A DNA stretch of 45,483 nt from Elsinoe ampelina. Lineage: Eukaryota. Under the pieces are notes generated by a model. That model did no database searches, was not told the DNA's origin, and worked only from the letters and a program-made list of their open reading frames with translations. Positions 1 to 21,694 of this stretch are shown piece after piece. Positions within the stretch are counted from its first letter, which is position 1. Each line of letters opens with the position of its first letter. Position numbers and translations under genes: made by a program. The stretch lies in NCBI GenBank assembly GCA_010093995.1, contig ML992511.1:62849-108331 (forward strand). Reading direction: 5' to 3'.

Positions 1-2104
1 ATTTTAACTACCCTTACTATAGTATAGTACGCTACGAGGTTAATAAGTAACTCTTGCTCTAAGTTACTATTAGCATCTTCGATCGCTAGTAAGCTAGGAA
101 AGCTTACTATTAACGACATGTCTACTACTAGTTTAACCTCGGGCGAATATAGAAGGTCTTTTAGTATAGAAGGATAGAGTAGGCCTAAGTTAGAGGTAGA
201 ACTCTTCTATAGGGACCGCGCTTACTTAAGGCGCTTTCTTGTTTAACTTAAAGCCTTCTTCGCCCTAGAGAGAGATAAGTATAGTAACAACGCGGCAAAG
301 GTCCTCTATACCGGGATATATCTTAAGAGCGCCGCCTTCGGGTAGTTTAAGCCTTATATAAGTAGCTACCTAGATAGACAACTAGGCCTAGAGATAAAGG
401 CTATCTTTAAGAGCTTTAGTATCTTCTAGGCAAAGATTAAGTAAGTCTTTAACGTATCTAACGAGAAACGCGTTGCTATGACAAAGATCTAACAATTATA
501 ACAACGTAGGTCTATAGCCTAGTACTATTCCTAGTTCTAACAACTCGTAATACACCTAGACTAGGACAATAGTACTAAACACTTAGCATTCTATTAAGGA
601 CTAAGCGACTTAGTTAAAGACTAAATAATACCTAAGCTACTCGATAGTCTTTAGGAACTAGTAGACACTACAATTGCTATCGATAATAGACTTTACGAAC
701 GACGTATAGAACGTTATAGGGGATATAAGGTAAACACTAGATATACGCGTTTCTCCCGAAACTATAGAGACCCTATAGAACTTAATACTATACACGAAGG
801 CTGCCCCTTATAGATACGAGGCTATAGTCGTAGAGGAAAGTTCCTTAGTAGAAAAGAGAGAGAGAAGTATAGATAAGATAATCTATGTTTTAAGTGTAAA
901 AGACCTAGGCATTAGGCTAGGGACTACTAATAAGGGGCGCTAGCCGATAGATTACATATAATAGTTACTAGGCTAGTAGAAAAAAAAGGTCGACACTACT
1001 ATAGAAGACCTAACGACCTTTAGCGTAGGTAAGGAAACATAGAAGAGGTCTATAACGACTTAAGAGGTAATAGAATTTTCTCCGGATGTTACGCTTAATA
1101 TCTCTATAACTAATAGCGAATAACAAAGCTAATACGTAACGCTATTATAGATAGTATATTACGATAACTCTTGTTATATTTACTTATTAGACAAGTAGAG
1201 ATCTAGTTAGTTCCTATATAAGCTATCTAAGCGTAGGTAACTAACAAAATAGCTAGACTAGGGGCTTAACCTAGAAAGGCTCTCTATAATTAGTAGTAAC
1301 ATTAACTAACCTTAGAAGGTAGTTAGCGACAATTACTAATATACAATTATCGAGACAAAGTATTAGAACGCAAGTGCTATATAATAATATAGTAGCCTTA
1401 CCTTTAGCCTTTATAGCGAACTACAAGGAAAGGTATATTATATATCGCTCTAGAAATATACAAATCTAGATTACGAATAGTACTATACTATCTACTTATA
1501 CGATATGCTTAGAGAAGACGCTATTAGTCTTAAATATACTATAGACTTCTTAGTAATCGAGATAGATAGTACTATTCCCTATAGCTAAGTAAAAGAATAT
1601 ACTTAGTATAGCCTTACTAACTATAACTATACTAGAGGTAGTAGCGATAAAGAGGAATATAACGAAGAATATACCGAACAACTACGATATAACAACATAG
1701 ATAAGGACTTATCTAACAACAACGACAATAACGTACTACTATCGGGCAGACGACTTAAAGTATACCTTATAGAGATATAGAGGAATTATATAATAATATA
1801 CACCTACTACTAGAATAGGATATAATAAGACAAATCTACATAACTTGTTTTTGTCTTTAATACTAACGCCTAGCTATACCTAGAAGGAATAGTTATACCT
1901 ATATAGGTATATAACACTACTTAGTACAACTAGTAGAGAATTATTAGACTTTATAGTTACTAAGGGACTTAGGCGCTAGAAGTTTACCTTACTATGTTAA
2001 ATAGCGATAAAACACAACTTGCCTAATAGATATAGTACTAATAGTAGATACGTATAGGAAGGGATTAGCTACTTATCTAAGGAGCTATAATGACAAAAAA
2101 CTAG
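1..2104 (+). pseudogene. gag: Gypsy-1 gag (long C-terminal extension), RIP-degraded
   Basis: De-RIP reading gives DPMELD-like motif (~770-790) and zinc knuckle LCFKCKRPGHxARDC (~883-927). AAAAAAC-TAG slippery/stop site at 2095-2104. Confidence 0.8.
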
Positions 2105-5100
2105 CTAGTTGTCGCCTAATAAGGTAAGACAATAACACTAGCTAAAGCCTTAATATAATAAAGATCTATATATTAAACTACTTTATACTAGAAGTCGAAA
2201 TATAAGGAAGTAAGGTAAGAGCAATAATAGATTTAGGAGCTAACTATAGCTATATCTCTATAATAGTTACTAATTAGCTTAAACCTTATTAACACTAGAA
2301 GGAGTTACCTTACCTACTTACTATAGCGGATAGAACCTCTATAGGGAAGAACGGGAAAGTTACTTAGGAACTACGAAATGTTATAATCTAAATTAAAACA
2401 CACACGGAAAAACAATCGATCGATATAGTTAACATATAGTATAATATAGTACTTAGTATAGACTAGCTTTAATAACACAATCTAGACGTAGACTAGATTA
2501 AAGAAACACTCGAATTCCCTAAGTATAATTATAGGACATAGGGAGTATAATTAGCTCTATAGATACTAACTATAAGGACAGTATAGGTATAACTAATAGT
2601 TAGAGCTATTACTAGTGTAAGTAATTAAGTACTTCCGCCGGAATATAAAGACTTTAAGGACTTATTTAAAGAAAGAGAAGGTATTATAGCCTTACTCTAA
2701 TATAAACTATAGAATTACAAAATACCTTTTAAAGAAGGTAAATCCCTAACACACTATTAAGGTCTTATACTACTATTAAAACAAGAGGAGAATGTCCTTA
2801 AGAACTATATCGATAAGTACTTACTTAAAGGATTTATACAACTATTAAAATTACCTATTATGTATAGAGTGCTTTTTACACTAAAAAAGGATAGAACGTT
2901 ATAAATATATATTAATTACTAGAAACTTAATACACTTACTAGGAAGAATTACTATTCTCTACTAAGAATTAACAAACTTTAAGACTAACTACTTAAAGCT
3001 AAATAGTTTACTATAATTAATATTAGAGACGCCTATTATTAAGTATAAATAAAGGAGAGTAAGGAGTAGAAGATAGCTTTTAGGACGTAATAGAGTCTAT
3101 ATAAGTACCTCGTTATACTCTTTAGGTTAACTAACACTCCCGTAACTTTCTAAGAGTTAATTAATAACACTCTATAAAAATACCTTAACGATTTTGTCTT
3201 AGTATATTTAAATAATATTATTATCTTCTTAAAGATATATAATAAACATATAGGACATGTTCGTAAAGTACTATAGAAACTAAAAAAAAAAGACCTACCG
3301 GTAAAACTCTCTAAGTGTAAGTTCTATAAACATAAGATATAATTTCTAGGCTATATTATATCTACTAATAGTATCAGACCCGATCTGAAGAAGATCAAGT
3401 TAGTAAATAACTAGCTAGAACCTATAATAGTTAAGGAGGTTTAAGCGCTACTAGAGTTCTTTAACTACTACTATAAGTTTATTAAAGAATTCTCTAAGGT
3501 AGCTATACTAATATCTAACCTTACGAAAAAGGAAACTAGCTTTGTCTTTAACAAGAGATATAGGTAGGCCTTTAAGGAGCTAAAGCTTAGACTTATAATA
3601 GCACCTATTCTAGCACTCTTCGACCTAGACCGATAAGCACTACTAGAAACAGATGCCTCGGACTTTGCGATAGAAGCGTATCTAGCGTAGAAGGGCGTAG
3701 AAGGATAATGCTACTTAATTATATACTACTTACGAAAAATGACCGGACCTAAACTTAACTATAATATATATAACAAGGAATTACTTATAATTATAAAAGC
3801 GTTCCGCGAATAGAGAGTATACCTAGAAGGAACAACCTTACCCGTATAAGTCTATACTAACTATAAGAACCTTCTATATTAGACAATAACTAAGGTTCTT
3901 AATAGACGACAGGTTCGATAGTTAGAAACACTTATAAGCTATAACTTCTAGATCTACTATGTTAAGGGATTAGAGAATAATAGAGTAGACGCTCTTAGCT
4001 GCTAGCTAGATTACTTAAAAAACATAACAATAATAGAGGCCTCTATACTAAAGTAGTAGGACGGCGCTCTAGTCTATAAGCACCCGAAGGTAGAGTAGTT
4101 ATATAGCCTTACCTAGGAGCTTACGTAAGAACGAAAGAAAGAAGTTATTTAAATATACTATAATAACCTAATAGCGGGACATAGTAGGATTAATAAGACT
4201 ATCGAACTTATTACATAAAACTACCTCTAGAAAGAACTCTAAAACAATATTAAAACGTATATCGCTACCTATAATACATGCTATAAGTCTAAGCACTCTC
4301 GATATAGACTATATAGCCTACTATAACTCTTGCCACTACTAGACAAACTATAGTAATTAGTTATAATAGACTTTATAGGACCTCTACTACTATTAGAAGA
4401 ACCTCTTACAGGTATAAAGTATAATAGCATTCTAGTCCTAGTAGATAGGTTTACGAAGTATTACTACTTTGTCCTATATAAGACAATAGTAACTACCGAG
4501 GATATAGCCTTTACCTTCCTTCGAATAATTGTTTTACGACATAGAGTACTATAAGACCTAATAACTAATAGAGATAAGCTATTTACGTTATAATTCTAGT
4601 AATTATTTATAGACCTACTAGGAGTTAAATATAAGCTATTAATCTTCTTTTACCTATAAACGGACGAATAAACTAAATAGGCAAATTAAGTACTAGAGTA
4701 GTACCTATAATACTACCTAAACTATAAGTAAGACTTATAAGCGATACTATTACTGCTCGTAGAGCTCGCTATCAATAATAGAAAGTTAGTAAATAGAATT
4801 TTACTATTCTACGTAAACTATAGAATACACCTAGATCTATACTACGATATACTTAGAATTAAGCTAGTATCTAAGGATGCTAATATACTAGTAGCTAATA
4901 TTAAGAAACTATATAACTAGCTATACTATAATATAGCATTTATATTATAAAGAATAGTAGAGTTTGCTAACCGGAAGAGAATTATAGGACTAATTCTATA
5001 GGAGAGAGAGAAAGTTTACCTCCTTAGTAAAAATATTAAAACAAAACAACCAAGTAAGAAACTTAACTATACTAAACTAGGACCCTTTAAGATCCTAGAA

Positions 5101-5475
5101 AAGAAAAACAAGAACGTATATAAACTAGAACTACTAAGATATATAAGGATTTATCTAGTCTTTTATATATTACTACTAGAGAAAGCACTATAGAATACTA
5201 TACCTAGACCTATCGAACTAGAGGAAGAAACACAGGAGCTACGGTATAAGATAGAAAGGGTTTTACGTTATAAACTTATAAAAGAAAAACGCTACTATCT
5301 TATTTACTAGAAGGGACATTAGTATAGTAAAGTAATATAGGAACTAGAGGAGCACCTTACCTCGTAAGTAATTCTAGATTACTAGATCGAGAACCTATCC
5401 TAAGTAAACTAACTAGACGGACTTAGTACTCTAAACACTAAACAAAAACGAGAATACCTAAGGAAGATTACTTAA
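2101..5475 (+). pseudogene. pol: Gypsy-1 pol (protease, RT, RNase H, integrase, chromodomain), RIP-degraded
   Basis: AMIDSGA-like (2221), KKDGTLRMCIDYRKLN-like (~2884), YLDD-like (~3205), TDASDFAI (3650), TDGQTER-like (~4660), GPF (5080), chromodomain YEIERV..YLIHWKG..TWEPEEHL (5245-5358). In-frame TAA at 5473-5475. Confidence 0.92.
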
Positions 5476-6020
5476 CTAATAGAAGCACCTTAATTGTTAC
5501 TAAGTAAGAAACTCTAATCGGAGTTAAGCATAAATAACTACTAGTCCTACGGTAGGACGGGATCTACTAATAATAGTATTTCCTTCTACTCTAAGACTTA
5601 AATACGAGTCTCTTCTAGAGAGATTACTTTCTCTACCTTATCCTTTAACTTTTACATCTCTTTACATAGGTAAAGCTTATTACCTATAGCTCTTTAATAA
5701 GCCTCTTTTGCCTTTTTATAAGCTTCTTTAGCTTCTCTTCTAGTAGCCTTAGCTATAACTAATTCCTTTCGTAAATAAATATGCTTAGACTAAAGACGCT
5801 ACTATTTTGATTTTATTACCTAAATATTATAACTCGAGTAGTTACTTACGATATACTAGCTATAGATACCCGACTAAATATAGACCTTATAGTCTAGCCC
5901 CTTCGATTTACAACGAGAATAAGCCTACGGTATGTTAGTTCTAAATAGTTTAATAAACTCCGAGAGATTCTTTCGTATAGATATACTAGATTTGCTATGC
6001 CTTCGACAACTAGGAGGCAT
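5472..6020 (-). pseudogene. Antisense accessory ORF of Gypsy-1, ~182 aa, Zn2Cys6-like cluster plus coiled coil (brtn-like)
   Basis: Intact ATG at 6020. Reading TAT/TAC as RIP-mutated TGT/TGC gives A-C-S-R-C-K-S-K-G-L-D-C-K-V-H-I-x-S-G-I-C-G-Q-C-I-A-S-N-x-S-S-C-D (C-x2-C-x6-C-x8-C-x2-C-x7-C), then an E/K/A/R-rich helix. All internal stops are TAG/TAA. Confidence 0.75.
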
Positions 6021-6094
6021 ATTTAGTATATAGCGCGTAAGAATAAGGAAGAATACTTACTTATTAGAATAACTTAATTAAAGGAGAAGAGTAA

Positions 6095-6557
6095 TGTTAC
6101 GAACTAGTAGGATAGCTAGAATATAGAGACGTTAGAACTAATTAAGCTACCGAGATTATCACGTGACCTAGCCTAACGTTTACCTAGTTCTCTATCTTCT
6201 CTAGCGGCTCTACCTCTAAAACTATAGAGCACATAGGTTACTAGCGAACGTGTACTCTATATTACTCCCGACTCTTGCTATAGAGCATATAGAGCACATA
6301 GAGAACATAATAGAGAACACATATATATAGGAATAGTCCTTACCTTATATAAGTACTATAGTTAACCTCGTCTAGATAGCGAACACTAGTATTACTAAGG
6401 CTAGCCTTTATAATACTATCTAATTGTACTTTATTATCTATAAGACATACCTTCTCTAACTCTTACCTTAGTACTATACTACTATAGAAGTAGAACTACC
6501 TTGTTCCTAGCTTAGCTTAGACTACTAGTGTAGGCTATGTTTAGACAGTTCGTAATA
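6095..6557 (+). repeat. 3' LTR of Gypsy-1 (463 bp)
   Basis: Starts TGTTACGAAC just after the PPT and ends GTTCGTAATA (inverted terminus, CA>TA). Internal TAGAGCACAT-like repeats at ~6222-6322. Confidence 0.88.
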
Positions 6558-7033
6558 TAAAGATCCCTAAGCTTCTTAATCCTAAGGTAAGTAAATCTCC
6601 TATACTAGAGCTAATACTCTATCTTAGAGTTATTAGGTCCTAAGTTAATAAGATTCTCTTATTGCTTATCCTAGGTTAGATATATATACTTAGTCTATAA
6701 TGTAATTATAGGCTAGATAGTAAGAAATACTAAATCTTAATTAGCTAGATCTAGAATTAAGCTAGGCTTAGATCTAAAATATAGCTTTTAATTAGCTAAT
6801 TACTTAAAGAGGAATTAGATAATATATACTCCCTCTCGAATTCTAGCTTTAAGTAATAGTTGCTTTTACTAATTAAGAACAAGAAAAGAATTTAAATTAA
6901 GAACTTTAGAAACCTCTAAATCTAAGTATAGCTTATAATAGAAGACTAAATTAATACTAAGATTAGGTATATAAAGAGCCTATATCTTTATCTTATCTCT
7001 CTTCTTAGTCTTAATAACTATAGTTCCTATTAA
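6558..7033 (-). mobile_element. Ty1/Copia element 'Copia-A', fragment 3 (protease C-terminus to GAG-pre-integrase)
   Basis: Minus strand de-RIP reading: IGTVVIK, ALYVPNLGINLV, LWHRRFAHLG..KLRDL. Confidence 0.85.
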
Positions 7034-7244
7034 TATAACAGAGTATCTAGATAGAGTAGGTACGATGTCTCTAAGATAGAGAAGTAATAGAGGAGAAGTA
7101 TACACTATATAAATACAACGACAAATTTCTAACCTCTCTATAGGAGGTTAGGAACTACTACTATATATACTATATAGGATTATAGCTAGAATAACGTATC
7201 TCTAATATCTATCTACTAGTCGTAAGTTTATAGTTCCTATTATA
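7034..7244 (-). repeat. Gypsy-2 3' LTR (211 bp)
   Basis: Colinear with 14745-14955; the differences seen are transitions. Confidence 0.95.
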
Positions 7245-7769
7245 ATTGCCTTCTTCTCTATAGGCCTATCCTTAGGCTAGTCCCTTGTTAAAACTCTCTA
7301 GTAGTAGGGAAAGAGTAGACTACCTTCGGAGCGTTGTTATGCTATATATAGAGGTCTATATACGAGGTCTTAGCATTAGGTAAGGAATGTAAAGTGTAGC
7401 TCTACTTAACTTTATATATAAATTTGCCTTACCTAGTATATATAACAACGTTATTCCCTTGTTTCCTAGCTACTATTATGCTAGCTATAACGATAATTAG
7501 TAGGCTACCTTATTTCTTCTTATATCCTTCTTCTCTTAATTAGTATAGGAGCCTTCTATTATCTATAATAATAAGACAATAGAACAATAGGACGCTCCGA
7601 TATATATACGAGGCTTTTCTCTTATTAGAATATCTCTTCTCTTTCTTCTAAAAACCCTTTTACTAAAGTATAGCTCCTTACTCTCTACCTTATATTCTAT
7701 ACTAATATCTCCTAGTATCTCTCTAACGTCTTATTATTCTTTCTCCGCTATTAGGAATCTTCTTTTAAT

Positions 7770-8455
7770 ATGTCTTCTCTAGTAAGTACTACCTCTAGTA
7801 GACCTAACTATAGCTAGATCTAGCGCGAAGGTACTTCGCTATTGTCTCCTAGTTATACTAACGTTGTTCTTATTATAGAGAGCTCTTACGTTAACTGTCT
7901 TAAGCTTACTACTAAATACGTAATGTCGGATAATACTAACTTTACTAATAACCTCCGCTACTATAAGAAGTAGAATAATTATGCCTTCTACTAGCTCTAT
8001 AAGCTCTGCTATAATAGCTATATCTTTATAGGTCTAACGACTATTCTCCGTCGAAGCGATACTAATACTCCTAGTTCCTTAAGTGCTATAGTAATAAACT
8101 TAAGGCTACTAGAGTTACTTACGAGGCTATCTACGCTCGTTGTTATACTAATAAGGATAAGGAGTTAGACGCTATACTAGCTAATAAGTAGCGTATTTAC
8201 GACGCCTATACTATAATAGTAAGATATATTACTACTCTTAAGGCTAAATATATTTCTACTAAGAAGAAGAGAAAGAGAGGAGAATCTAACTCCGATAATA
8301 ATTCGCCTATGACCTATAAGGACTTTGCCGCCTTACTTGCTAGTAGCTAAAAGACTAACGAGTTATTAGCAAAGATTATCGGCGCCTAGTCTACTAGGAA
8401 GGCTTCTGCCTATACTACTATATCGGCCTCTAGTAGTACTACTAGTAGAGCCTAA
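7770..8455 (+). pseudogene. Gypsy-2 antisense accessory gene A, ~212 aa, Cys cluster + KKKRKR + coiled coil, one intron (8028-8074)
   Basis: ATG at 7770, exon 1 of 86 codons. De-RIP pattern C-x2-C-x20-C-x9-C-x2-C-x6-C-I-F. 47-nt intron (G>A)TAGGT...ACTAAT...CTAG. Exon 2 reads ...KKKRKRGES...KDFAALLASSxKTNELLAKI... Confidence 0.72.
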
Positions 8456-8856
8456 GAGATTTAGGGAGTTAGAGTAGTTACTAGTATAGTATTCGGGTTT
8501 CTAGGTATAAGTATAAGTTCCTTAGTCAATGTAATAGCTTAGAGCTATCGGAGATAGATTTTGCCTTTTAGAGTTTATAGAGTTTTTTGCTTTCTACTTC
8601 TTCTTTTTGCCTAAGTCTTTTATTTTATAGCCCCTAGTAGAGCTATAGCTCTTAGATTACTCTTGCTCCTTTATTAGGGCCTATTATTCCCTTAGGTATT
8701 GTTATATTATTAAGAGTCTATTATTAAGGTAAGTATTATTAAGGAGAGTATTATTGTTTAGATAATAGAGAAGCGATATATATATACTATCTTCTCTCTC
8801 TTTCTCCTTAATCTCCTTAGACTCCTTATTCTCTCTATCTACTTAACTTCTACACT

Positions 8857-9551
8857 ATAATATTAGAATCTTATAGTATTATAACCTACTATGTCTCTAC
8901 CGATTAGATTAATAACTCTAGCTACGCTATGTCCTTCGAGTCTCTAGAGATTACTAACGTTGTTATAGAGGCGATATACTGTCTTAGATTCGGTAGAGAC
9001 TTCTCTAGTAACTATAACTATAACTATAGTAAGAGCTCTAAGCCTAAGTTTCTATAGTTCTAGACCTCTTCTAACTATGCTACGCTAGTGTACTACTATT
9101 AGTATAAGCCTTGTATTTGCTACTAGACTACTATATATCTTAACTATAAGTAGGCCTAGTCCTAACGTATTTATAACAACGATATAGGCACTTTCCTCCG
9201 CTACTATCTCTATTAACACTTCTATACTAAATATGTCTTCGTATGTTTTTGTTCTACGTTGTTACTATAATAGCTAACCTATAGTAGTATAACGTCTCTT
9301 ATACTCTACTTATTAAGAGTCTTATTTCGACCTAGCGCGCCTTTAATACTACTATCTATATTTAGGAGTCTAACGAAGATATAATAGAGTCCCTATATAG
9401 CAATCTTATTCTTAAGCTTATAGAGCTAGATAAGCCTAAAGACTTAGAGGATAGAGTTAAGATAGACCTCTTATAATTCGCTAGTGTTACGTTAGAGATA
9501 TATTATTAGACTAACGTTATACTTTTTTATAACATAGACTTACTTTTTTAA
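8857..9551 (+). pseudogene. Gypsy-2 antisense accessory gene B, Cys cluster, one intron (9241-9287)
   Basis: Frame 8857-9240 (in-frame ATG at 8929) ends de-RIP R-C-H-L-C-Q-H-F-H-T-E-C-V-F. Intact GTATGT donor at 9241, GCTAAC branch site at 9273, TAG acceptor at 9284 or 9287. Acidic helical exon 2. Both ends approximate. Confidence 0.62.
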
Positions 9552-9601
9552 ATCTTAATCTCGTGCTATTTCCTTATCTCTCTCTTTCTCTATAGCGTAA
9601 G

Positions 9602-12600
9602 TTTAAGCTCTTTAAGCCTTATAAGTCTCTTACTTAATGTAGCGTTACTTCGCTATTATGCTTAGAATAAGGCCCTTCTTCTCGAAGTTCTTAATTTTAC
9701 TAATAGTATTCCGTAGATGCTTTATTAGCTCCTAGCTAGCTTCCTCTTTAGAATAGCCTTTCTAGAGTATCTTATAGTAAGTCTTGCCCCTAATAAGACT
9801 CTTATTAACTACCTCTTTAACCTTATATTCTTCTTCCCCCTTAATTTCTACTAGCGGTAGAGTAATATTGTTACCTTATTAGTAAGCCTTAAGGAGAGAT
9901 ACGTAAAAGGTCGAGTAGATTAATTTTATATATACTAGAAGGTTAAGTTAGTATACTTAGTAGCCTACTATCTTAGCGACGGTAAATAGACCTATAAACT
10001 TCGCCGCTAGCTTCTTCTTTAGCTAGAGGGACTAAAGATTCTTAGTACTTAGTATAACTTCTTAGCCTTTCTTAAACCTTATTAGCTAGTGCTTCTTATT
10101 ATAGTATACCTCCTACTACGCGATAGCGTTAAGCCTATACTACTTAAGTTCTTCTCTTATGTCTTATAGGGCCTTTGCTCTTACTTCTACTACTAGTGCT
10201 TCTAGTAGTTATAGAGCTACCTCCTTCTTTATAGCGTTAGCCTTAATATTGTTAGAGAGACATAGGACTATTCCGTAAATATAGTAGAGTAGGCTTACCC
10301 CTAGTAACGCGCTATAGGAGCTATTATAGGCAAACTCGGCCTAATATAGCTAGTATAGCTAGTTATCTTAGTAGAAATTAATAAACACCCTTAGGTACTA
10401 TTCGATTATCTAGTTCTACCTCTCCGTAGCGCTATTAGTTTAAGAGTAAAACGCTATTAAGAGGCGTCTCTAGACCTTCTATCTCTAGTAGAGAAACGTC
10501 TAAAATTTAGACTTAAATAGGGTACCCCTATTAGTAATCTAGCTTCTTAGGAACCTATAGCGACTAAGAATCTTTCTCTCTATAATGTCGACTAACTCTT
10601 AGGCCTCTATGTCTTTTCTTACTAGAACGTATCTAACGTATTTAGATACTCTATCTACTAGCACTAAAATTGAATCGGTAACGGAGCTCTATTAGTCCTT
10701 TACTAGAGGTAAATCAGTAATAAAGTCTATTAACTAATACTAGAGTACTTCTCTAATAGAGAGTAATCTTAGAGCCTATATTTTACTATAGAGCTAATAT
10801 TAAGGAACCTTTGTTCTTTAGCACTTATTATAGTAATTTACGTATCTAGTAACGTCTATCGTTATACCCTTCTAATAGTACTTCTACTTTAGTATAAAGA
10901 GTGTCTTTTCTATTCCGAGGTAGCCTACTATTAGATTATTATAATTTCTATAGAGTATCTCTATAGTTAGTATTTTTATAGCTAGGATAAAGACTTTGTC
11001 TTAGAATAGTAGGACACTATTGTCTTACTATCTCTAGCTCTCTCTCTTAGTAGTCTCTCTTTCTTTAGAATCGCCGAGACGTTTTAGTATTGTCTCTACT
11101 ATAGTATCTCGCTACTATAGCCTCTTTACTAGGCTAAGTAGCCTCGGTAGTGCTTCTTTATATATATTGTCTTCTTTCGTAGCTATCGCGTATAGATATC
11201 TAGAGCTAGTAAGTTCTCTATAATTTCTCTATAATCTCTCTACTATAGTTATCTATAGGGAATAGCAAAAGGAACTACTTACCTCTAGGGGAGCGGACCT
11301 ACTATCTCTACTCTTATAGGGAGCTATCTTAGCTTCCGCGTCTATGTCTAGTATCTTACCTTAGGCTATAACACTCTCTTAGGTATCTTTAGATCTTCTA
11401 GTATACTCTACCTCGCTACGCTATCTCGGTAAGGAGTCCTCGGTAACTACTAAGTTTATATCTAGTATCTTACCTTATACATCTTAGGTTAACTTAACCT
11501 ATTTAGCTACTATTATAGCGTTAAGGAGAAGACGTCTCTCCGGCCTCTTATATAAGTCTCTTAGGACCTATAGGTGCGAGTCTACCTTAGCTTACTTATC
11601 TCTAGTATCTAGGTCTAGCCTTCTCGATAGTCTATCGGTAGAATTAAGCTTCCCCGGGTTATAGGTAATCTAAATATTATATTATAATAGCTCTTCGCTA
11701 ACGCGTGCCTATTAAGCTAAGAGCGTCTTAGTTATTAAGAAGTATTTTAGGTTATTATAATCTATAAATACAGTAGTAGTAGAAGAAATAGAGAGGAGAT
11801 ACTACCGCTAGTAGCGCGCTACCTTAAGGATAGTAAGTAGCTCTTAGTTATACGTAGGCTAGTTTAACTCTACTCTCTATAGTTTCTGCGAATAGTATAT
11901 AATAGAGTACTATTAGACTGCCTTCTCTCCGCCGTCGCCGAATAGTTATATAGTAATCCTAGAGATAGTAAATCTAGAGGAGTTAGTATATATCCTTATA
12001 TTCTTACTTTTATTAAAAAACTATAGGAGGGAAGTAGTTATAAAGCAGTCTTTAAGATATTAGAATAATTACCTAGCACTATTAGTAAAGTAGAAAGGAC
12101 CTATCTATTTTCTATTTTTGCTCTCTATAAGTAGTTATATTATAGGTCTTATTATTTCTATATAGCTATTAATAAACCGTTAGTAAAAGTTTATAAATCT
12201 AAGGAAGATCTAGAGTTCTTTTAGGGAAGTAGGTTCTAGCTAGTCTATAATAGCTTAAACTCTCTAGAGCTCTATCAAGACGCCCTCAGAGCCTAGAACA
12301 TATTCTAGAAACTATACTTCCTTAACTTTAAAGGCGTACTTAGAAGCCTTTATAAAAAGAAGATACTTCCTAAGTCGCGCTAGAACTTCTTTAACATGCC
12401 TACGGTGCTATAACAGATCTCGGGAGTAGATAAGAATATTATCTATATAGACGATATAGTAGTAATTAACTAAGCTATCGAGGCATTAGCTAATATATAA
12501 CTAGAAGGTAGTAGGAGCGTTTACGAGACTAAAAGGTATAACTACGTATTTAAAATATCTATATCTACATCGGAATACTATCTTCTATTCGTTGCTCCCC

Positions 12601-13580
12601 TTAATCTAGATATAGTAATATACGTCCCTAAGATCTATTTTTAAGTATACCTTAGCCCTCTAGATTCTATCGAGCATCTCGGTAATAAGGGGTAAAGAGT
12701 AGTAGTTCTTTACTAAGACGTTGTTAAGACCTCGGTAGTTAACGTAGAGACGTAGCAACTTATTAGCCTTAGATATAAAGAGGATAGAAGCCTCTACGGG
12801 GCTAGTAGAGTAGTAAATATAGCCTAGCTTTAAATTCTTAGCTAGGTACTCTCTAAGAGCACTTAGCTCCGTCTCTACAAGGGCGTAAATAGGTCCTTAT
12901 AGAGGTTACTTCCCTTCGATAAGTTCGATTAAGTAGTTATATAGTGCCGGAGGGGGTATAGTAATAGCTTCCTTATTGTCGAATATATCTAAGAAGTTAT
13001 AGAGCTAGCTTAGGAGCCTACTCTATAACGTTAGAGCGTTATCTTTATAGATTATATTTAAGAAAACTATATAGCACTATAGCTACTCTAACATTTCCTT
13101 AGTAAATTCTTCTACTATTAGGAGTATTATATTAACGCTAGTAGAGCAATGTCTCTACCTCTAGCTTTGCTAATTAATGTCTAGGTTAATACTAAAGAGC
13201 TATATCTAGCCTAGTACTAAGTTGTATCCCTTTATCTCTACTAACTTAAAGCACTATCGAATCTCCTTTATAACGCTATAGTAGTTAGTAGCTTTTACTA
13301 TAAGATAGTAGTATCTATATAAGCGTATCTCGTACTAGTTAAGGAACTTTACTCTTGTTACGCTATTAGTACGTAGGTAAACTTCTTTCTCCTTTACGTA
13401 ATAGTAGTTAATAAAATAAATATTAGTCTCTAAATCTATAAGAGATATAGCTACGCGATTAGTAGATAGGACTCTACCTTCCTAACTAAAGTAAATATCT
13501 ATTCTTAGTTAGCTTAGTAGCGGACCTCCTTTAGATACTCCTAGCTATATAGAGGCGAGATCTATAGCTAGGGTATCTAG
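9602..13580 (-). pseudogene. pol: Gypsy-2 pol
   Basis: Minus strand: IVYMDDILIYS-like (~12423-12455), integrase core, chromodomain EEYEVEEV..YKILWKGY..EASWEP (~9715-9835). Ends approximate. Confidence 0.9.
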
Positions 13581-14650
13581 TTTTTTGTCTTATTATAGAG
13601 GCAGTTAGAGTAGATATAGCTAGGTTACTTACACCTATAGTACTTTACCTCTAAGAGGTCGAGGTAATAGAGTATTAGAGTTATATTAACCCTAGACGCA
13701 GGGTCTTTAAATCTTCTTTTTTCCTTATTTTTGTTATTCTAGAATTTCTAGTTGTCTCCCTTTAGCTTATCTATAAAGTAGCGAGGGATACGTGTCGTCT
13801 TAGAGATAGCTTAGCTCCTAAATACACTCTTAATGTAAGTAAAGTAGGAGATAGCCTCGTCTTTACTCCTTAGAGAGTCTTAGAGCGCTATATAGCTCTA
13901 TTAATATATAGGCTTTACGCCGTTAACGAGGCAGCTTATAAACTAAGCCTTATCTATAGTAGTGTTACTAATTTCCTTAGCGTACTCTTCGAGGTATTAG
14001 GCAAACTTAGCGACCGATTAGTTTAACCTCTAAGCGCCGTTATAGAATAGTTAGGTATATTTTAGAGCTCGGTTACTCTTGTCTATAATACAATCTTTAA
14101 TCTATTCTTAAAAGTGGCTCTAGTTCTTAGCCTAAGGTTCTACGTTGTTAATATAGCTCTTCTATATCGTAGCGAGGGATCTATCTAAATAGCTAGCTAT
14201 AAACTAGGCTCGATCTCTACTAGTAAGATAGATATACTTATAGACCCTAAAGACGGCATAGTATAATTAGATAAACACCTTTACGTTAGCGAGGTGTATA
14301 TATCTCTTTAGTTTCTCTAGTACCTCTAGCTTTTATACTTTCTTAAGGTTAATCTAAAGGGAAAGTATCTCTAGAGAGATATCTAGATTAGAGGTTCCTC
14401 GAGAGATACTATCTTAGTATAACTAATTATTGTTGTCGGACTTCTCTCGCTGTTTCTACGTATCGATATAGATTCTCTTTTAAAGGAGTCTTTTACACTT
14501 AATTACGAGGGCCCTCTAGATCTCTATATACTCTCTATTCCGGCAGAGTTAAGCTAGCTCTTCTTAGGTAGCACGTAGCTCCTCCTTAGATATATTAGAG
14601 AGAATAGGTTCTAATTAGGTAGCTTCTACCGAGCTAGTAGATATAGCATC
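13577..14650 (-). pseudogene. gag: Gypsy-2 gag
   Basis: Lies between the 5' LTR and pol; AAAAAAC-TAG slippery/stop site at ~13577-13586. Start approximate. Confidence 0.7.
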
Positions 14651-14744
14651 TATAGCGGATAATCTATTAGTTCTTTATTAAGCTAACTACGTTAAGACTA
14701 TCGACCTAGGCTATCTTAACTATAGTTTTAGGAGGAATTTAAAT

Positions 14745-14955
14745 TGTAATAGAGTATCTAGATAGGGCAGGTATAATGTCTCTAAGATAGAGAAGCGATA
14801 GAGGAGAAGTATATACTATATAAATATAACGACAAATTCCTAACCTCTCTATAGGAGGTTAGGAACTACTACTATATATACTATGTAGGATCGTAGCTAG
14901 AATAACGTATCTCCGACGTCTGTCTACTAGTTGTAAGTTTATAGTTCCTGTTATA
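14745..14955 (-). repeat. Gypsy-2 5' LTR (211 bp)
   Basis: TGTAAT...GTTATA termini; matches 7034-7244. Confidence 0.95.
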
Positions 14956-15190
14956 ATTAACTATAACTAAAAGTAATACTCCCTAACCTAGATCTATTAA
15001 GTACAAATCTTGCTTAATAGGCCTCTAAAGAGAGTTAGCTTATCTATTATATAGTTAGATACTCTAGAGTTAAGTATCTACTAATAGTGTAGAAGCTTAC
15101 CTTAAACCTCTAATGTAGAACCTATAGTCTTAAGCTCTTTATTACTAGAAAGGACTTCTAGTAGTAGAGATAGAGATATTAATAGTAGAC
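14956..15190 (-). mobile_element. Copia-A fragment 2 (protease active site)
   Basis: Minus strand de-RIP WILDSGASNHMT (~15045-15081); continues across Gypsy-2 into IGTV in the 6558-7033 fragment. Confidence 0.88.
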
Positions 15191-15377
15191 TATTAAAGCC
15201 TTATATTAAAGCTATATATATTATAATATAGAGAACGCCTATCTAACTAAATAGTCTATTAGTAGTAGAACTAATTACTATTAAGTTTAAGGCGTAAGTA
15301 CTACGTAAGATAAGTAGATATATTACATAAGCGGGACTAGCCGCTACTAAGTGCCGCTCTAATACTAGGCTCTTATA
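15191..15377 (-). repeat. Gypsy-3 3' LTR (187 bp)
   Basis: Colinear with 21695-21881. Confidence 0.95.
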
Positions 15378-15791
15378 ATTGCCTCCTCCTCTAGGAGAGC
15401 TATCCTTAGCTTTTAACTAGAAGTATATAACGTATAGCGCCTTCTAGAGGTAATATAGACTTAAGGTAGTTAAGGCATTTATATAAATACCTCGTATGTG
15501 TCTTATATACTATTTAGTAATAGTAATCCTAGGGATCTAGTTCTTATAGGGGTATTTATCTAGTCGCTATAGCGCTAAAGCTAATTAGTAGCGACAATAT
15601 TACTTTTCTTAGAATTTCTAGTAGTATTATAGGAGATATACGCCTTACGCTAGTAGCTATAATAAAGATATAGTATACTAGAGGTTAGTCTATATAACTT
15701 TATTATTCCTTCTTACATTCTTCTTTTCTACCTAAAATATATCTATATTTTATTAATCTTTTACTATATAAGTGTACTACCTATAACTATT

Positions 15792-16587
15792 ATATTATTT
15801 AACTCTAGCCTCTCTATAGCTAACACTTATAGTATAAGGTTAGCTAGCGCCTAGAGAGCTATTACTACTAGCGCCGACCCTATAACTCTCTTACTTCCTA
15901 AAGAGGAGGCTAACACCTATACTAGGTACGCTAATAGCGTTACTAAGGGTAAGCTAATAGAGCTCTTATAAGAGATATAACTAATTCGTAGTAAGTTATA
16001 TCTATACTAGAGGTAACTTTAGTATCTTCTTCTATTATAAGTGTAAATACTACGCCTATAGTAAGTATATATATAAGCTACTTCTATCTATCCTACGTAA
16101 TATATACGTTAACGCCTTTAATATAGTTACTAAGCTTAAGGCCCCTAACTAGGCTAGTATTACTATAGCTAAGAAGTATATATACGCTATAGCCTATAAG
16201 AACGTCCCCGAGGTTAAGAAGTTTAAGACTATACTTAAGGTATACTACACTAATAAGAATAAGATTGTTAGCGAGGTCTTAACTCCTTATATAGGGCCCG
16301 TAGATAGCTTACTTAGTAGTGTTACGCTCGAGTATAAGAAGGTTAAGAAGCTATAGAAGATTAGGTATAGCCTTTATAGCTTAATTACTATCGGTAAGGA
16401 GGTAAGTTAGACTATACTCCTTATACGTTATAAATATAGCTAATAGGTTTAGATAGTACATAACTCTAGTAGTTCTACTACTAAAATTAACTATATTATA
16501 GCTAGTAGGTAGCTTATAGCCCCTATAGCACCCGTAGGGGAGAATCTTAGTATAGAGGTAAATAAGGAGAATAGTAAGAATAAGTAG
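15792..16587 (+). pseudogene. Gypsy-3 antisense accessory gene, ~233 aa, Cys cluster + helical region + acidic tail, two introns (15949-15991, 16402-16452)
   Basis: Introns GTAAGC..ACTAAT..GTAG (43 nt) and GTAAGT..GCTAAT..TTAG (51 nt). Splicing gives a continuous 234-codon frame. De-RIP C-T-R-C-x10-C-x12-C-E-Y-C-x6-C-E-P-L-P, later ELRKIRHSL..LIAIGKE. Confidence 0.75.
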
Positions 16588-16800
16588 GCGTATATAAGCT
16601 AGATACGTATCTCTAGCGCTATACCTATAATAAGGCCTTACGTAGAGTATAATAGAGTATAGAGTTTAGGTTAATACTCGTAATAGTAGCGTAAGTATAG
16701 TGCTTTATTAAAATGTATTTCCCTAGGTAAGGAGTCTACTCTTTACCCTATTTATGTGTTTATATAATCTATTTACTTATATGCTTTATAATTCGCATCT

Positions 16801-19800
16801 TTAGCGACCTTTCTTAGCTACTCTTAGCTACGACTTATATATAGAGATTAGCTCTCTTATATTTATATAATTCTCTTTAGGTTTCTAGCTATTAAACTTA
16901 ATAGGCTAGTCTTTCTACTTTACTAAGTAGAACACTTTACTCTTTATAGTTCTTCTACCTAGAATCTCCTCTACTATCTACTTATCTACTTCGTTAGCGA
17001 GAGATATACTCTCTTTTAGCTTCTTACTAGCTCTACCTATCTATAGTTTAAGAAGAGATATATAAAAGATATTATAGATACAATACTAACTTAGTAAAGC
17101 TAGGTAATATACCTATAATCTAATTGTGTTAAGTATATAGAATAGGCTAAGGAATTATAGTTCTATCTTCTTCTTTAGTATAGGTAGCTATAAGTTCTTA
17201 GCTAAGAGTAGTACTAAGTTACCTATGCTATATACTCTTAGCGTATACTTTCTATTATAGTACTTAGCCTAGTAGGTAGAAGCCTCTTTCTATTACTCTA
17301 CTAGCTTCGTATATATATCTTATAAGTGTTATACTAACTCTACTACTACTAGTACTCTTCTCTCTAAAGTCTCGTCTCGAGACTTAATAGCTATTACCTC
17401 TAACTCTAGATAGTAGCTGTACATTATTTAGAAGAGGCTTATATATAGCGTAGTATAAATGCTATTATTGCTTATAAATTCCACTTATAATAGATGTTTA
17501 GCCTAGTCGTTCTATAGCTCTATATAGTAGCACCTTAGGTACTATTCTAACGTCTAGTTTTACTACTTAGTTTAACTATCTATCTATAGGTAAAAGGCTA
17601 TACTAAGCCTACGCTTTATACGCGTTTCGTAATAGAATTTACTCTAGAACTAGCTAGTAAAGACCAATCCTTAATTACTTACTATCTCTCTTAGAACACT
17701 ATAATAGTAAATAACATAGTTACATAGGATCTCTACTAGCTCTATAGACATACACTTCTTAGTAGTAGAGATATATAGTAACATCTTAGTATAACAGTCT
17801 ATAATTACTAGTACTATATTATAGACGCTACTACCTTACTTACTTAGTAGTAGGTTAGTAATAAAATCTATTATAATTTCTTACTATAGGTAGTCTAGTA
17901 TTAGTAGCGTACGTAGCTCGCTATAGAGGTAATAGTAGCGCGCCTTATACTTCTAGCAAACTTAGTATAACTATACGTAGTTATTAATATCTTTTCTTAT
18001 AGTTAGCTAGAAGTATTTCTATAATAGAAGCTTAAGCGTCTTATCCTTACTAAAGTAACTAGCCTATTCGCCGTTATAGTATATATAGAGTACCTACCCC
18101 TTAATAGCACTATTATTCGAGATAACTAGCACGTTATAGTAGAATAGAAGGTTGTCTTATAGATTCTATAGCGTCTTACTCTTATCTCTACTACTCTCTA
18201 CTTATAAACGTAGCTTTATAATCTTAGAGTCTTATCTTTATAGTAGCTCTATAACTAATAATAGGTCGGCGGATAGATTCTTAAAGGGATTCTCCCTTAC
18301 TATTGCCGCAATAGTAACTTACTAGATCGTTATAAGACTCTAGGAGTTCTTAGAAGAAGTTTTGCCTTTATATAGTATATAGGCGGCCTAGGCCTATCCT
18401 AGGGCAGCCTCGTATATAGTATAAATATATCTAACTAGTAGAGTAGTTTCTTTAGAGTTAGTAGTCTAGTCCTAGACATAGAGCTTATTCTAAAGAGTTA
18501 GAAGAAGATAAGATACCTTCTACTCCTTAGTTACGTAGTTAGGGCGCCTTAAGGGTATATCGGCTAGATTTCTTATACTTAGCTAATACTCTATTATAAA
18601 GTTAAAAGCGGCAAGGAAGGTAGCCTAGTAAGCTTATTAGCTATTTAGCTATTTTAGCTTTATAAATCCTTAGAGATTGTTATAGTTAGTAAGTACTTAA
18701 ATTATATATAAGGTACCTTCGAGGTAGTGTTACTATTACTTAAATACATATATAATTACTAATAGCTCTTAGTTGTATATCTCGTAATTATACTTAGCTA
18801 GGATAAACTTTCTCGACTAAAAGGCTATAGAGTGCTAAGTACTATCGAATAGTTAGGACAGAATCGCTACTACTATAAACTTTAATATATTGCTTTTAAT
18901 ATATAGAGGTAGTGTAGAATTATAGTAGCGAAGGATAGAGGTATATATAAATACGTCTCTAATGTCCTTAAATGCCTACTATTCGCTTACGCTCTATATA
19001 AAAGAGCTATACTTACGACCTTTAACTAAGCCTTTAAGAAGGCTAAAGAGAGGAGTAATAATCTTAGAGTAATACTATATAAAGTAGTAGTAGAAATTTA
19101 TAAAGCTAGTAAACTACTAGACTTTATAATAACTCTTTAGCCTTAGCTAATTCTTAATTGTAGTTACTCTACTTAGATCTATTAAGACGCCTATAGTAAA
19201 GATAATATAGCTAAGGAATTCTACCTCCTTAGTAAAGAATTTACATTTCTTAAGGCTAGTATATAAAGTAAACTTCCGTAGCCTTACTAGAATCTTGCGT
19301 ATGTAACGTATATAGTTCTCCCTTAAGTTACTATAGATAAGAATATTATTAAGGTAAATAACATAGATAGTATTAACTAGTTCACCTAGCGCTTTATTAA
19401 TATACGCTTAGAAGGTAGCTAGGGCATTAGTTAATCTAAAAGGTATAACTAAATACTTAAAATAGCTATAGTATATATAGAATATAGTCTTCTACTCGTT
19501 ACTATACTTAATAGAGATTCGATAATAGACATTCTTTAGATCTAACTTTAAAAACTACTAGGCTTACCCGAGCTAATTAAGCATCTCGCTAATAAGTAGA
19601 AGCAAGTAGCGATTCTTAATAGTTACCTTGTTTAAGCCCTAATAATCTATATATAAGCGTAGACTACTATCTTTCTTAGGCACGAATAGGATAAAAGTAC
19701 TTACCTTGCTTGTAGAGTACCTAATTTACCTATTTAATTAAGTAGTCTCGAGATAGTTCTTAAGCACTTTAAGCTTCTTAACTAAAAGATTATATAAGGG

Positions 19801-21655
19801 CTAGAATAGAGGCCTTCTACCTAGCTCTAGCTTAATTATATACTCGGTACTTAGTAAGCATAGCAGATTTATAATATTCTTATAGACAAAGATATTAAAG
19901 AACTCTACGAACTCTAATAGTAGAGCTAGGTTACCTACGGCATAAGTATAGTCCTTAGACAGAGTCTATACTATAGCGTATATTCTTAGCTTATTTTAGA
20001 GATCCTTTATAAAGTCTTCTAGTTTATATAGGTAAACTATATATAAAGAGTAGCTATACGACTAGTTATCTATAGTGCTATTTATAATTATATATTGTCT
20101 TCTTCGCTATAGACGCTCTAAGATAACTAGAGGGCCTAGTCCTAAGTCTATAGCGTAGAAGAGGCTAATTGTCTCCCTAAGGTTACTATAGGAGTCTACT
20201 AGATATACGCGAAGCTAGTATACACCGTAGTAGAATCTAGCTTACTTTATAAAGAAAGATATACTTAGATACTAAGTATACTTAACCCTTAGTAAATTAT
20301 AACATAGAGTAAATGCCTAAGATATAAGATTAACTTCTATATAATTGTCTATAAGAAATATATAGTCTTTGCGCCCTATAGGCGCTATAATAGCGCTATA
20401 ATAGAGTAGCGATAGATAAGCGTTAATTAGAAGAGGGAAAGGGCTTAGTTACGCTCTTTAGCTAAGCTCTTAAAGTTTCCTAACTTAGAGTTATTAGACT
20501 TGTCTATAGTAGTAACCTTACGTATTGCCTAAGACTTACTATTCTTCTATAGGTGCTTCGACCTATACTCCGGCTTAATATAACTAGTTTTACTATAACT
20601 ATAGCACTTAGCGTCTCTCTTCTACTTGTTAGAGAAACTCCCCTAACTACTAAACTATTTAATAAGTAGGTTAGTAGCTTCGCGCTTATAGTAAGCTTAA
20701 GAGCCGCTACCGGACTAGTAGTAGTATCCTTCTTAGAGGCTACTATAACTACTACACTTACGTAGGTAGTTACTTTTATCTTCCTATATAGCGCGCTTAC
20801 TACTAGTATAGTCTATAGACTCGATATGTAAGTCTAAAGAGACTAACTCCTAGTACGTAGCTAAAATAGTATAGTGTTTAATAATAGTAGTACGTAGCGT
20901 AGGCTATAGCTTAGCAAGGAGATAGTGTATCTTCTACTCTTTAGAGTAGAGAGCTAGTTACTTCTCGAGGGTAGCGAGTTCTAAGGCAAAGGTCTAAATA
21001 GATTAGCCCTTATATTGTTAGGCTCTCTCGTATATAAGAGTTATATATACTCTATAATTAATAGAGTTATTAACTACGTCCTATACGAACTAGTAGAATT
21101 ACTCTTATATATAGCCTTCTAGGCTATCTACGTAGTAGCGGTAATACTATATCTTATCTAGCTTACCTACGAGAAATATAACTCTATAGAGCACCTTCTA
21201 CTAGTTAGTAGAATAAGCCTTAGGGGCTAGAGTAAAAATAACCTTAAGATTCTTTAGGAAGGATCTTACCTCTTTTAGAGTCTTACCCTAGTAGAGATAA
21301 AGTTCCCTTAGTTAAGGTTATCTAGAGAATAGTCTTATAAATAGTCCGCTACTACTATATATGCTCTACGTGCTAGTATTACTTACCGTAGGCTTAGTAA
21401 GAGTACGCGAGCTATAGTCAAAGCCTCCTTAGTAGTATTCTATATTACGTATATAGTATATTTACTTAATCTCTTTCTCGAGGCTTTAAGCTTTAAGCTT
21501 TAGCTCTAAATACTTACGCTTAGCGCGTAGGTATAGTAGCTACTCTATAAGAGTTTCTTCTTTCTCTAGAGAAGTCTACTTAATAGAGTCTATCTCTATA
21601 ACATTATTTACGCGAGGTATAGGCGCCTTACTAATAGAGTTCTAGTTATCTATAG
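16801..21655 (-). pseudogene. Gypsy-3 gag-pol
   Basis: Minus strand: VYLDDILIYS-like (~19330-19360), RNase H, integrase, chromodomain WIVEEILG..FYLVKWKDW..NSW.P (~16875-16981), stop at 16801. Start approximate. Confidence 0.9.
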
Positions 21656-21694
21656 AGTCTAATAGATTATAACTATAGGTAGAGTAATTAGAAC

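Follow-up and report, generated by a model that had tools for sequence, protein, structure and literature searches.

Candidate antisense accessory genes with a six-cysteine cluster in RIP-degraded Ty3/Gypsy elements of Elsinoe ampelina

The first 22 kb of a 45,483-nucleotide stretch of Elsinoe ampelina DNA (assembly GCA_010093995.1, contig ML992511.1, positions 62,849 to 108,331; the whole stretch is referred to as the window and all positions are those of the window) contain three Ty3/Gypsy retrotransposons, designated Gypsy-1, Gypsy-2 and Gypsy-3, which are degraded by repeat-induced point mutation (RIP). Each has a spacer between the chromodomain at the end of pol and the polypurine tract (PPT) in front of the 3' long terminal repeat (LTR). 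An earlier note, made from the letters of the sequence, had described four antisense frames in these spacers, one in Gypsy-1, two in Gypsy-2 and one in Gypsy-3, with a common cysteine scaffold if tyrosine codons are read as cysteine, and had compared them to Gal4-type Zn2Cys6 regulators. The locus raises the question of whether such frames are remains of genes or a product of RIP-altered composition, and what kind of protein any such genes encoded.

The best joint explanation, to which we assign a probability of about 0.7, is that the Gypsy-1 and Gypsy-3 frames are what RIP has left of genuine accessory genes carried by fungal Ty3/Gypsy chromoviruses, that the Gypsy-1 family is a remote relative of the Gal4-type Zn2Cys6 DNA-binding domains and that the Gypsy-3 family is a six-Cys variant with a longer first loop. 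The accessory genes in the window copies are dead. The observation of the earlier note was partly confirmed and its interpretation is partly supported.

Gypsy-1 and Gypsy-3 antisense frames and their intact homologues

Intact relatives of Gypsy-1 were obtained by a metagenome scan with 15 intact pol sequences (alignment A2), which gave 79 loci, and all open reading frames (ORFs) of at least 70 amino acids in these loci were counted. Canonical Zn2Cys6 spacing is C-x2-C-x6-C-x5-12-C-x2-C-x6-8-C. Antisense ORFs downstream of pol contained a loose six-Cys motif in 9 of 56 cases and the canonical spacing in 5 of 56. The corresponding counts were 1 and 0 for the 71 sense ORFs downstream of pol and 1 and 0 for the 819 other ORFs. 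The five canonical antisense ORFs (loci L045, L047, L049, L050 and L075, designated family A3) are 166-188 amino acids long and mutually homologous. All six cysteines are invariant in the five members, with the pattern C-x2-C-x6-C-x8/9-C-x2-C-x6/7-C. The Zn2Cys6 spacing rule is followed by every intact member of the Gypsy-1 family (5/5) and, as Y or C codons, by Gypsy-1 itself.

Judged by sequence comparison, the Gypsy-1 frame (P0001) is homologous to the A3 antisense ORFs. BLASTP gave E 8e-11 to L045 and 3e-6 to L047, and RIP-aware Smith-Waterman alignment gave z values of 12.3, 9.5 and 4.0, each at rank 0 of 805 null chunks; the RIP-aware alignment to L075 remained below significance (z 1.5). 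The six A3 cysteine columns all align to Y or C in P0001, five to a Tyr codon and one to a Cys codon, which is the correspondence expected from RIP (TGY to TAY). The codons of the cluster are Y34, C37, Y44, Y53, Y56 and Y64, spaced x2, x6, x8, x2 and x7. They are followed by a helical, coiled-coil-like part, and 19 stops are present in the 207 codons read. The best place for the A3 hidden Markov model in the whole window is 5996-5766, at only -2.8 bits. A word-based protein search with the Gypsy-1 frame found nothing.

The position and orientation of the frame agree with those of the intact ORFs. The A3 ORF converges on pol, and the two share 47-140 nt at the 3' end of pol in four loci; in L049 the shared stretch is 470 nt. 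The distance from its ATG to the LTR is 45, 113, 106 and 94 nt in four intact relatives and 74 nt in Gypsy-1, where the antisense frame ends near 5421 and pol extends to about 5400. Ranked by the likeness of their pol to that of Gypsy-1, the A3 loci are numbers 3, 6, 7, 8 and 14 of the 79, while they rank 15-64 against the Gypsy-2 pol and 41-73 against the Gypsy-3 pol.

Purifying selection on the antisense frame, whose absence would by the earlier note have refuted its interpretation, is indicated by the intact L075 and L050 ORFs, a single pair with dS near 1. Their omega (dN/dS) is 0.11 for all 173 codons compared and falls to 0.066 in the 157 codons of the gap-free block, the differences at the three codon positions number 14, 12 and 64, and the antisense frame is without stops. 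In four of the five other frames omega is above 2; the mirror frame has 0.166, with stops.

The ORFs could also be host genes, or shadows of the pol frame, that merely lie beside the elements. The pol ORF of L049 does span 470 nt of the antisense ORF, and the omega of the mirror frame is also lowered. However, the antisense frame alone is free of stops and has the lowest omega, the accessory family tracks the pol lineage, and the spacers with the Gypsy-1 and Gypsy-3 relics are high-copy in the DNA runs. Furthermore, four of the A3 contigs have identical terminal repeats of 126-157 nt and unit lengths of 6.1-7.3 kb, which is what whole elements assembled as circles, with the antisense ORF included, would show. 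An origin as host genes or pol shadows is accordingly very improbable.

The Gypsy-3 frame (P0009) has an intact homologue in a related species. When P0009 was run in full HMMER mode against 1.84 billion representatives, a single protein reached E <= 0.001, namely KAF4546987.1 (P0013; E 6.1e-6), a hypothetical protein of 213 amino acids from Elsinoe fawcettii, and pairwise BLASTP between the two gave E 2e-18. P0013 contains the cluster C31-x2-C34-x9-C44-x12-C57-x2-C60-x6-C67 and an acidic tail. In the RIP-aware alignment all seven of its cysteines align to Tyr (six) or Cys (one) codons in the window, and the window stop at codon 153 aligns to Gln158 of P0013. The codons of the cluster in the relic are Y24, Y27, Y36, C49, Y52 and Y59 (spacing x2, x8, x12, x2, x6), and 11 of its 231 codons are stops. 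Position 16043, in the Cys49 codon, is among the 40 places listed of 1207 that differ between genomic copies; the window has TGY there and most other copies have TAY.

The intact pol closest to that of Gypsy-3 is KAF4546986.1 (P0014; 46% identity, E 2.2e-262). This accession directly precedes KAF4546987.1 and each is on an 18192-bp contig, so that the accessory gene and pol are neighbours in a genome not affected by RIP. A phmmer search with P0013 against the six-frame translation of the window found a match in Gypsy-3 only. A word-based protein search with P0013 returned only P0013 itself, and a search of PDB sequences found nothing. No relative was present among 589 pattern matches of a metagenome scan with the P0013/P0009 alignment or in the 79 pol-fetched loci, where the best match (L018) had E 0.75. 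The AlphaFold2 (AF2) model made from the single P0013 sequence had a mean predicted local distance difference test (pLDDT) of 43.5 and was unusable.

A codon-usage log-odds score was trained on RIP-mutated pol frames; in cross-validation coding windows had means of +8 to +17 and non-coding windows -16 to -20. With this score the Gypsy-3 frame is coding-like (+17.8, the highest of any spacer), the Gypsy-1 frame is at about 0 and the two Gypsy-2 frames are at -12.5 and -15.4. The limits given before for the Gypsy-1 frame, 5472-6020, are in frame from ATG to stop, and 16587 is a stop in Gypsy-3, but the Gypsy-3 start at 15792 is out of frame and the homologous stretch is 15898-16590.

These homologues also bear on the alternative that chance produced the pattern in all four frames. 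Under RIP each frame becomes rich in Tyr codons and its stops become TAA or TAG, and reading Tyr as Cys would then give zinc-finger look-alikes anywhere. Stops of only these two types had been offered as a sign of a gene, but TGA accounts for 18 of 4625 stops across all six frames and Tyr codons for about 8.5% in every one of the six, so neither cue marks a gene. The proposed [C/Y] scaffold is indeed present in all four frames; the pattern had been fitted to those frames, however, and this carries little weight. The loose scaffold has 29 start positions in 44,000 codons, where 6-7 are expected from Markov shuffles, and some of the matches lie in the reverse transcriptase (RT) and integrase regions. 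The canonical spacing read with [C/Y] gave 4 matches against about 0.6 expected, 2 of the 4 being in the frames of the note, an excess that is suggestive only. Both Gypsy-2 frames, moreover, score as non-coding, and no relatives were found for them among the ORFs compared. Against chance stand the null ranks of 0 of 805 and the intact homologues of Gypsy-1 and Gypsy-3, which have Cys opposite the Y and C codons as had been predicted for intact relatives; no such homologue was found for Gypsy-2. For Gypsy-1 and Gypsy-3 the chance explanation is already refuted, and for all four frames together it is scarcely credible.

Probable remote kinship to Gal4-type zinc clusters

The A3 profile was compared with 177,635 PDB sequences. 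Leu3 was found at E 0.0028, Lac9 at 0.008, Gal4 at 0.074 and Hap1 at 0.84, and 11 of the 23 matches were to Zn2Cys6 proteins, in which all six Cys align. The likeness to solved Zn2Cys6 domains seen in this profile is marginal but specific.

An AF2 model based on the five-sequence A3 alignment had a mean pLDDT of 74. Two short helices (31-35 and 50-55) start at the CxxC pairs and are followed by one long helix (65-143), in line with the helical region that the earlier note had placed after the cluster. Block means of pLDDT are 78-85 for the cluster and 77-96 for the helix, with values of at least 89 from residue 71. The 20 best-listed Foldseek rows for this model are Zn2Cys6 DNA-binding domains, as assigned from their titles. 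The best local fit was to Lac9, with a target-normalised TM-score of 0.68 and a root-mean-square deviation of 2.2 A over 32 columns.

Modelling of an A3 homodimer, in which the alignment was not used, gave a score of 0.53 against 0.00 for the best control; this mark is reached by 21 of 30 proteins solved as same-chain pairs, whereas none of 23 single-chain proteins reached it. Agreement between runs was at least 78% of contacts and the partner had pLDDT of at least 74. It may be that the score merely reflects solved Zn2Cys6 dimers which the model has memorised.

CGG-N7-9-CCG sites are located at most about 75 nt from the PPT/LTR junction in all four intact elements. As observations on the same region, L045, L047, L049 and L075 have a short inverted repeat at CGAGGAC or CGGGAC within the 30-60 nt before the PPT, and in L047 and L075 a 40-nt palindrome (AGCTTATAA...TTATAAGCT) surrounds CGG-N7/8-CCG. 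The inverted repeat or palindrome upstream of the PPT may fold into a hairpin in the RNA or serve as a site for protein binding.

Several results weigh against the joint explanation or limit it. The Pfam Zn_clus cut-off of 21 bits is not reached by the Gypsy-1 family, L045 and L049 having 10.6 and 13.5 bits and 3 of the 5 A3 members no Zn_clus match at all; L047 and L075 were without one in a scan of 12 ORFs. All Foldseek matches of the A3 model have E of at least 0.41, none being at or below 0.001. The modelled dimer pairs its helices antiparallel, which is unlike Gal4. CGG-N(0-17)-CCG occurs near the LTR junction 1-2 times per element, approximately the rough chance expectation. In the Gypsy-3 family the first loop has 9 residues (8 in the window) and not 6, so the canonical spacing is not kept, and P0013 has no Pfam match at E <= 10, Zn_clus included. 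Alignment of the Gypsy-3 family with the Gypsy-1 family by hhalign gave E 0.033 and a probability of 1.5%, the six Cys aligning only with gaps, and the two accessory proteins are therefore treated as two families. Purifying selection was measured on one sequence pair, and Gypsy-2 has no demonstrable antisense counterpart.

Some of these points are what would be expected if the genes are real but encode something other than a transcription factor. In that case the cluster and the helix might serve protein or RNA binding, for example in tethering integration complexes to chromatin or in particle assembly. The unmet Pfam threshold, the non-canonical spacing of the Gypsy-3 family, the antiparallel dimer and the lack of enrichment of the CGG site all fit such a function. 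On the other hand, DNA-binding Zn2Cys6 domains account for all of the best matches in sequence and in fold, and Pfam recognises no other domain in the A3 family, and we regard a function of this kind as unlikely. The joint explanation, with a Gal4-type relative in the Gypsy-1 family, is preferred. The Gal4-type comparison made in the earlier note therefore applies to the Gypsy-1 family, whose profile finds Leu3, Lac9 and Gal4, though below the Pfam threshold, and not to the Gypsy-3 family, which lacks such similarity. In the same way, the single scaffold proposed for all frames stands as a six-Cys cluster in both families, but these are two unrelated-looking protein families and their first loops differ.

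The Gypsy-2 spacer and the elements of the window

Of the two frames described in Gypsy-2, the first is weakly coding-like only at about 7825-8050, the part that holds the [C/Y] motif, and in a fine scan the coding-like signal passes from there to another plus-strand frame, 7997 to about 8470 (P0012). The first frame has no relative among 528 ORFs of related loci, and z did not exceed 2.2 against ten reference ORFs. The second frame has 19 stops in 232 codons and z of at most 0.3 against all ten reference ORFs, and is most likely a chance pattern in Tyr-rich RIP-mutated DNA. Since neither frame has support, the statement that three families each carry such a gene overstates the case. When the spacer frames of the three elements were all compared with one another, only composition-level noise resulted, the best E being 1e-4 between a Gypsy-2 antisense frame and a Gypsy-3 sense frame, and Pfam gave no match at E <= 10 for five read-through frames.

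A sense frame in the same spacer (7400-8054, minus strand) is coding-like, with +12.7 per 200 codons. It contains an open stretch of 64 codons rich in Arg, Lys and Glu, and Pfam found nothing meaningful in it. It may represent an ORF3 in sense orientation, or else mirror a gene on the antisense strand.

Gypsy-2 may also have had an accessory gene, with the window copy too damaged to show it. Such a gene would start with the ATG at 7770, contain the [C/Y] motif at 7887-8022 and continue, through a 1-nt deletion or a short intron, in the 7997-8470 frame. The score is positive at 7825-8050 in the first of these frames and at 8005-8410 in the second, the ATG would be about 520 nt from the LTR, comparable to about 510 nt in Gypsy-3, and the 7997-8470 frame is protein-like with a KKKRKR stretch. 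However, no homologue was found in Pfam, the 528 related-locus ORFs or the ten reference ORFs, the sense strand at 8054-7400 is equally coding-like, and a search by eye gave no convincing splice pair of the right phase. The gene model is conceivable, with the balance somewhat against it.

The anatomy described in the earlier note, three RIP-degraded Ty3/Gypsy elements, agrees with the Pfam domains and the RIP indices. Positions 1-22000 are heavily affected by RIP, with TpA/ApT of 2.01, (CpA+TpG)/(ApC+GpT) of 0.20, a G+C content of 27-38% and no ORF of at least 80 amino acids left intact. The degraded frames were therefore translated by read-through, with X at stops, and scanned with Pfam. RT, RNase H, the integrase zinc-binding domain and SH3 were found in each of the three elements. 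Chromo gave a weak Pfam match in Gypsy-2 only (E 0.087) and was recognised by eye in Gypsy-1 and Gypsy-3. The elements have the features of Ty3/Gypsy chromoviruses, that is, a pol in the order RT, RNase H, integrase, SH3 and chromodomain, together with a PPT and an LTR pair; both LTRs are present for Gypsy-2 and Gypsy-3 and a single Gypsy-1 LTR is inside the window. The coordinates are given in Table 1. Spacers from chromodomain to PPT measure about 0.7 kb in Gypsy-1, 2.4 kb in Gypsy-2 and 1.5 kb in Gypsy-3, as had been described. The LTR lengths given before were correct for Gypsy-1 (463 nt) and nearly so for Gypsy-2 (212 nt measured, 211 given), but not for Gypsy-3 (199 nt measured, 187 given).

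Table 1. Coordinates, strand and supporting evidence for the features of the three Gypsy elements in the window
Feature	Position	Strand	Evidence or remark
Gypsy-1, whole element	1 to ~6557	+	one LTR in window
Gypsy-1 gag-pol, RIP-degraded	1..5400	+	P0002; Pfam gag, RVT_1, RNase H, integrase H2C2, SH3_Tf2-1
Gypsy-1 antisense accessory-gene relic, putative (P0001)	5421..6020	-	homology to intact antisense ORFs; ATG at 6020-6018
Gypsy-1 PPT (AAAGGAGAAGAG plus 3 nt)	6080..6094	+	letters read; 60 nt from antisense ATG
Gypsy-1 3' LTR, 463 nt, begins TGTTACG	6095..6557	+	junction, depth step, loose ends
Gypsy-2, whole element	7036-14958	-	212-nt LTRs, 91% alike
Gypsy-2 3' LTR	7036..7247	-	direct repeat with 14747-14958, 91% alike; PPT 7249-7260
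First Gypsy-2 frame of the earlier note, unsupported as a whole	7770..8456	+	codon score -12.5
Second Gypsy-2 frame of the earlier note	8857..9552	+	codon score -15.4; 19 stops in 232 codons
Gypsy-2 internal region (gag-pol), RIP-degraded	9675..14746	-	P0003; Pfam RVT_1, RNase H, integrase H2C2, SH3, weak Chromo
Gypsy-3, whole element	15189-21891	-	199-nt LTRs, 92% alike
Gypsy-3 3' LTR	15189..15387	-	direct repeat with 21693-21891, 92% alike; PPT ~15388-15400
Gypsy-3 antisense accessory-gene relic, putative (P0009)	15898..16590	+	P0013 homology, codon score +17.8
Gypsy-3 gag (P0006 frame) and pol (P0008 frame), RIP-degraded	16860..21692	-	Pfam

The gag-pol of Gypsy-1 has 147 stops in 1800 codons and its chromodomain ends near 5370. 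The start of the Gypsy-1 3' LTR is marked by the PPT-TGTTACG junction, which recurs in the intact relatives L045, L047, L049 and L075. The DNA runs place its end at about 6557: their depth increases about 2.6-fold between bins 5687-6073 and 6074-6460, and they show many loose ends at 6550-6557. The junction common to Gypsy-1 and the four metagenomic relatives is GATAG/TGTTACG (TAA/TGTTACG in the RIP-mutated copy). A different one is found on the minus strand in Gypsy-2 (7241-7260) and Gypsy-3 (15375-15400), where both LTRs start with AATTATAA and the PPT in front of them has AGGC as its last letters; these two supposedly unrelated LTRs thus have the same junction.

In Gypsy-3 gag and pol (21692-16301, minus strand) occupy different frames (P0006 and P0008), which implies a frameshift between them or an indel in the window copy. 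Among the contigs from the DNA runs are some in which 7017 is connected with 14956 and 6780 with 15158 (window 7017-7035 and 14956-15188). These joins look like the empty site of the Gypsy-2 insertion, which suggests that Gypsy-2, and probably also Gypsy-3 at 15189, inserted into a further high-copy sequence located after the Gypsy-1 LTR. From 22000 to its end at 45483 the window is occupied by another repeat family, with direct and inverted copies of 0.3-1.8 kb. Strong AT-richness (19-27% G+C) marks the copies as far as about 38 kb, while those at 39-45 kb have 45-50% G+C, and the RIP gradient therefore stops there.

Proposed role and relation to known systems

In intact relatives, according to the joint explanation, the accessory gene is antisense and sits after pol and before the PPT and 3' LTR. 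The predicted protein of about 165-215 amino acids would consist of an N-terminal six-Cys cluster, a long helix predicted to self-associate and an acidic or aromatic tail. Because the ATG is only 45-113 nt from the LTR, the promoter would lie in this short segment or inside the 3' LTR, and antisense transcription would probably start from a promoter in the 3' LTR. The combination of zinc cluster, self-associating helix and acidic or aromatic tail is the layout of a minimal Gal4-like activator, which favours an element-encoded regulator of LTR transcription. The product would then be a dimeric, sequence-specific DNA-binding factor that tunes the transcription of its own element by activating or switching the LTR promoter. 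Two presumed RNA runs with the same species label gave nothing that aligned on 5300-16900.

The Gypsy-1 family resembles the Gal4-type factors (Gal4, Leu3, Lac9, Hap1, Put3 and Ppr1; PF00172) in the six invariant Cys, the canonical spacing and a modelled, dimerisation-like helical segment after the cluster. It differs from them in the short length of its proteins (166-188 amino acids), in the lack of the middle-homology region of fungal transcription factors, in being encoded by a retrotransposon and in remaining below the Pfam threshold. The Gypsy-3 family differs further by its 9-residue first loop.

A counterpart in position is HBZ of human T-cell leukaemia virus type 1 (HTLV-1), an antisense-encoded basic leucine zipper (bZIP) factor for which transcription from the 3' LTR and a regulatory role have been shown. 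Like HBZ, the Gypsy accessory protein would be a transcription factor-like, dimerising protein whose minus-strand gene occupies the 3' end of an LTR retroelement and starts beside the 3' LTR. The DNA-binding fold and the host kingdom differ, and for the Gypsy genes transcription from the LTR and regulation are inferred. A more far-reaching proposal, rather doubtful at this stage, is that chromoviruses of fungi possess a Gal4-type transcription factor of their own, made from an antisense gene under control of the 3' LTR and thus equivalent to HBZ in a different kingdom. As a dimer on the LTR of its element, such a factor would turn sense transcription on or off or counter silencing by the host. 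It would occur in lineage-matched versions, and its genes would belong to a large unannotated family of small hypothetical proteins in Ascomycota.

The VANC proteins are anti-silencing factors of the Arabidopsis VANDAL transposons. They were the analogy chosen in the earlier note for the candidate fungal regulator, as family-specific DNA-binding accessory proteins encoded by a transposon; they come from a DNA transposon, however, and have an unrelated fold.

Antisense extra genes in LTR elements are already known. The Boty-like (BcGypsy1) retrotransposons of Botrytis cinerea reportedly have an antisense gene, brtn, said to have been described by Zhao et al. in 2011 (Virology 417:248). The brtn gene is cited for Boty elements in passages of PMC8365987 and PMC4227169, and PMC8365987 also refers to additional predicted ORFs in other BcGypsy families. 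As an extra antisense gene in a fungal Ty3/Gypsy element brtn is similar to the Gypsy-1 and Gypsy-3 families, beside which it is set by description only. Plant Tat/Ogre Ty3/Gypsy elements carry antisense extra ORFs as well; as far as the relevant passages of PMC4408406 go, these encode a plant mobile domain or a transposase-28 domain, without a Cys cluster.

Other antisense ORFs were observed in the 79 loci. In L060 an antisense ORF of 397 amino acids downstream of pol (3074-4267, minus strand; noted together with L058 11-313, minus strand) combines a coiled-coil first half, rich in Lys, Glu and Ala, with a six-Cys motif in mid-protein (x2, x6, x14, x2, x6), so that the domain order is reversed. 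L044 has an antisense ORF of 357 amino acids with C-x4-C-x6-C-x10-C-x2-C-x6-C. The antisense ORF downstream of pol in L008 (6541-7056, minus strand) is a DDE_Tnp_1_7 transposase fragment (E 1.1e-8) and is probably part of a neighbouring or nested DNA transposon and not an accessory gene.

No description of a Zn2Cys6-type antisense ORF in a fungal LTR element was found in the literature searched, a search whose scope excluded most subscription journals. Two language-model look-ups returned only clusters of Ascomycota hypothetical proteins with 63-210 members (scores of 0.91-0.94 in the best rows), which are leads and not proof. The usual view is that LTR retrotransposons depend on transcription factors of the host, and accessory regulators are regarded as a hallmark of complex retroviruses. 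If the joint explanation is true, a conserved and selected zinc-cluster protein would be a private regulator of fungal Gypsy elements, and many of the small Cys-rich hypothetical proteins in Ascomycota annotations would be explained. Such antisense ORFs could enter repeat libraries, where RIP-mutated genomes now hide them.

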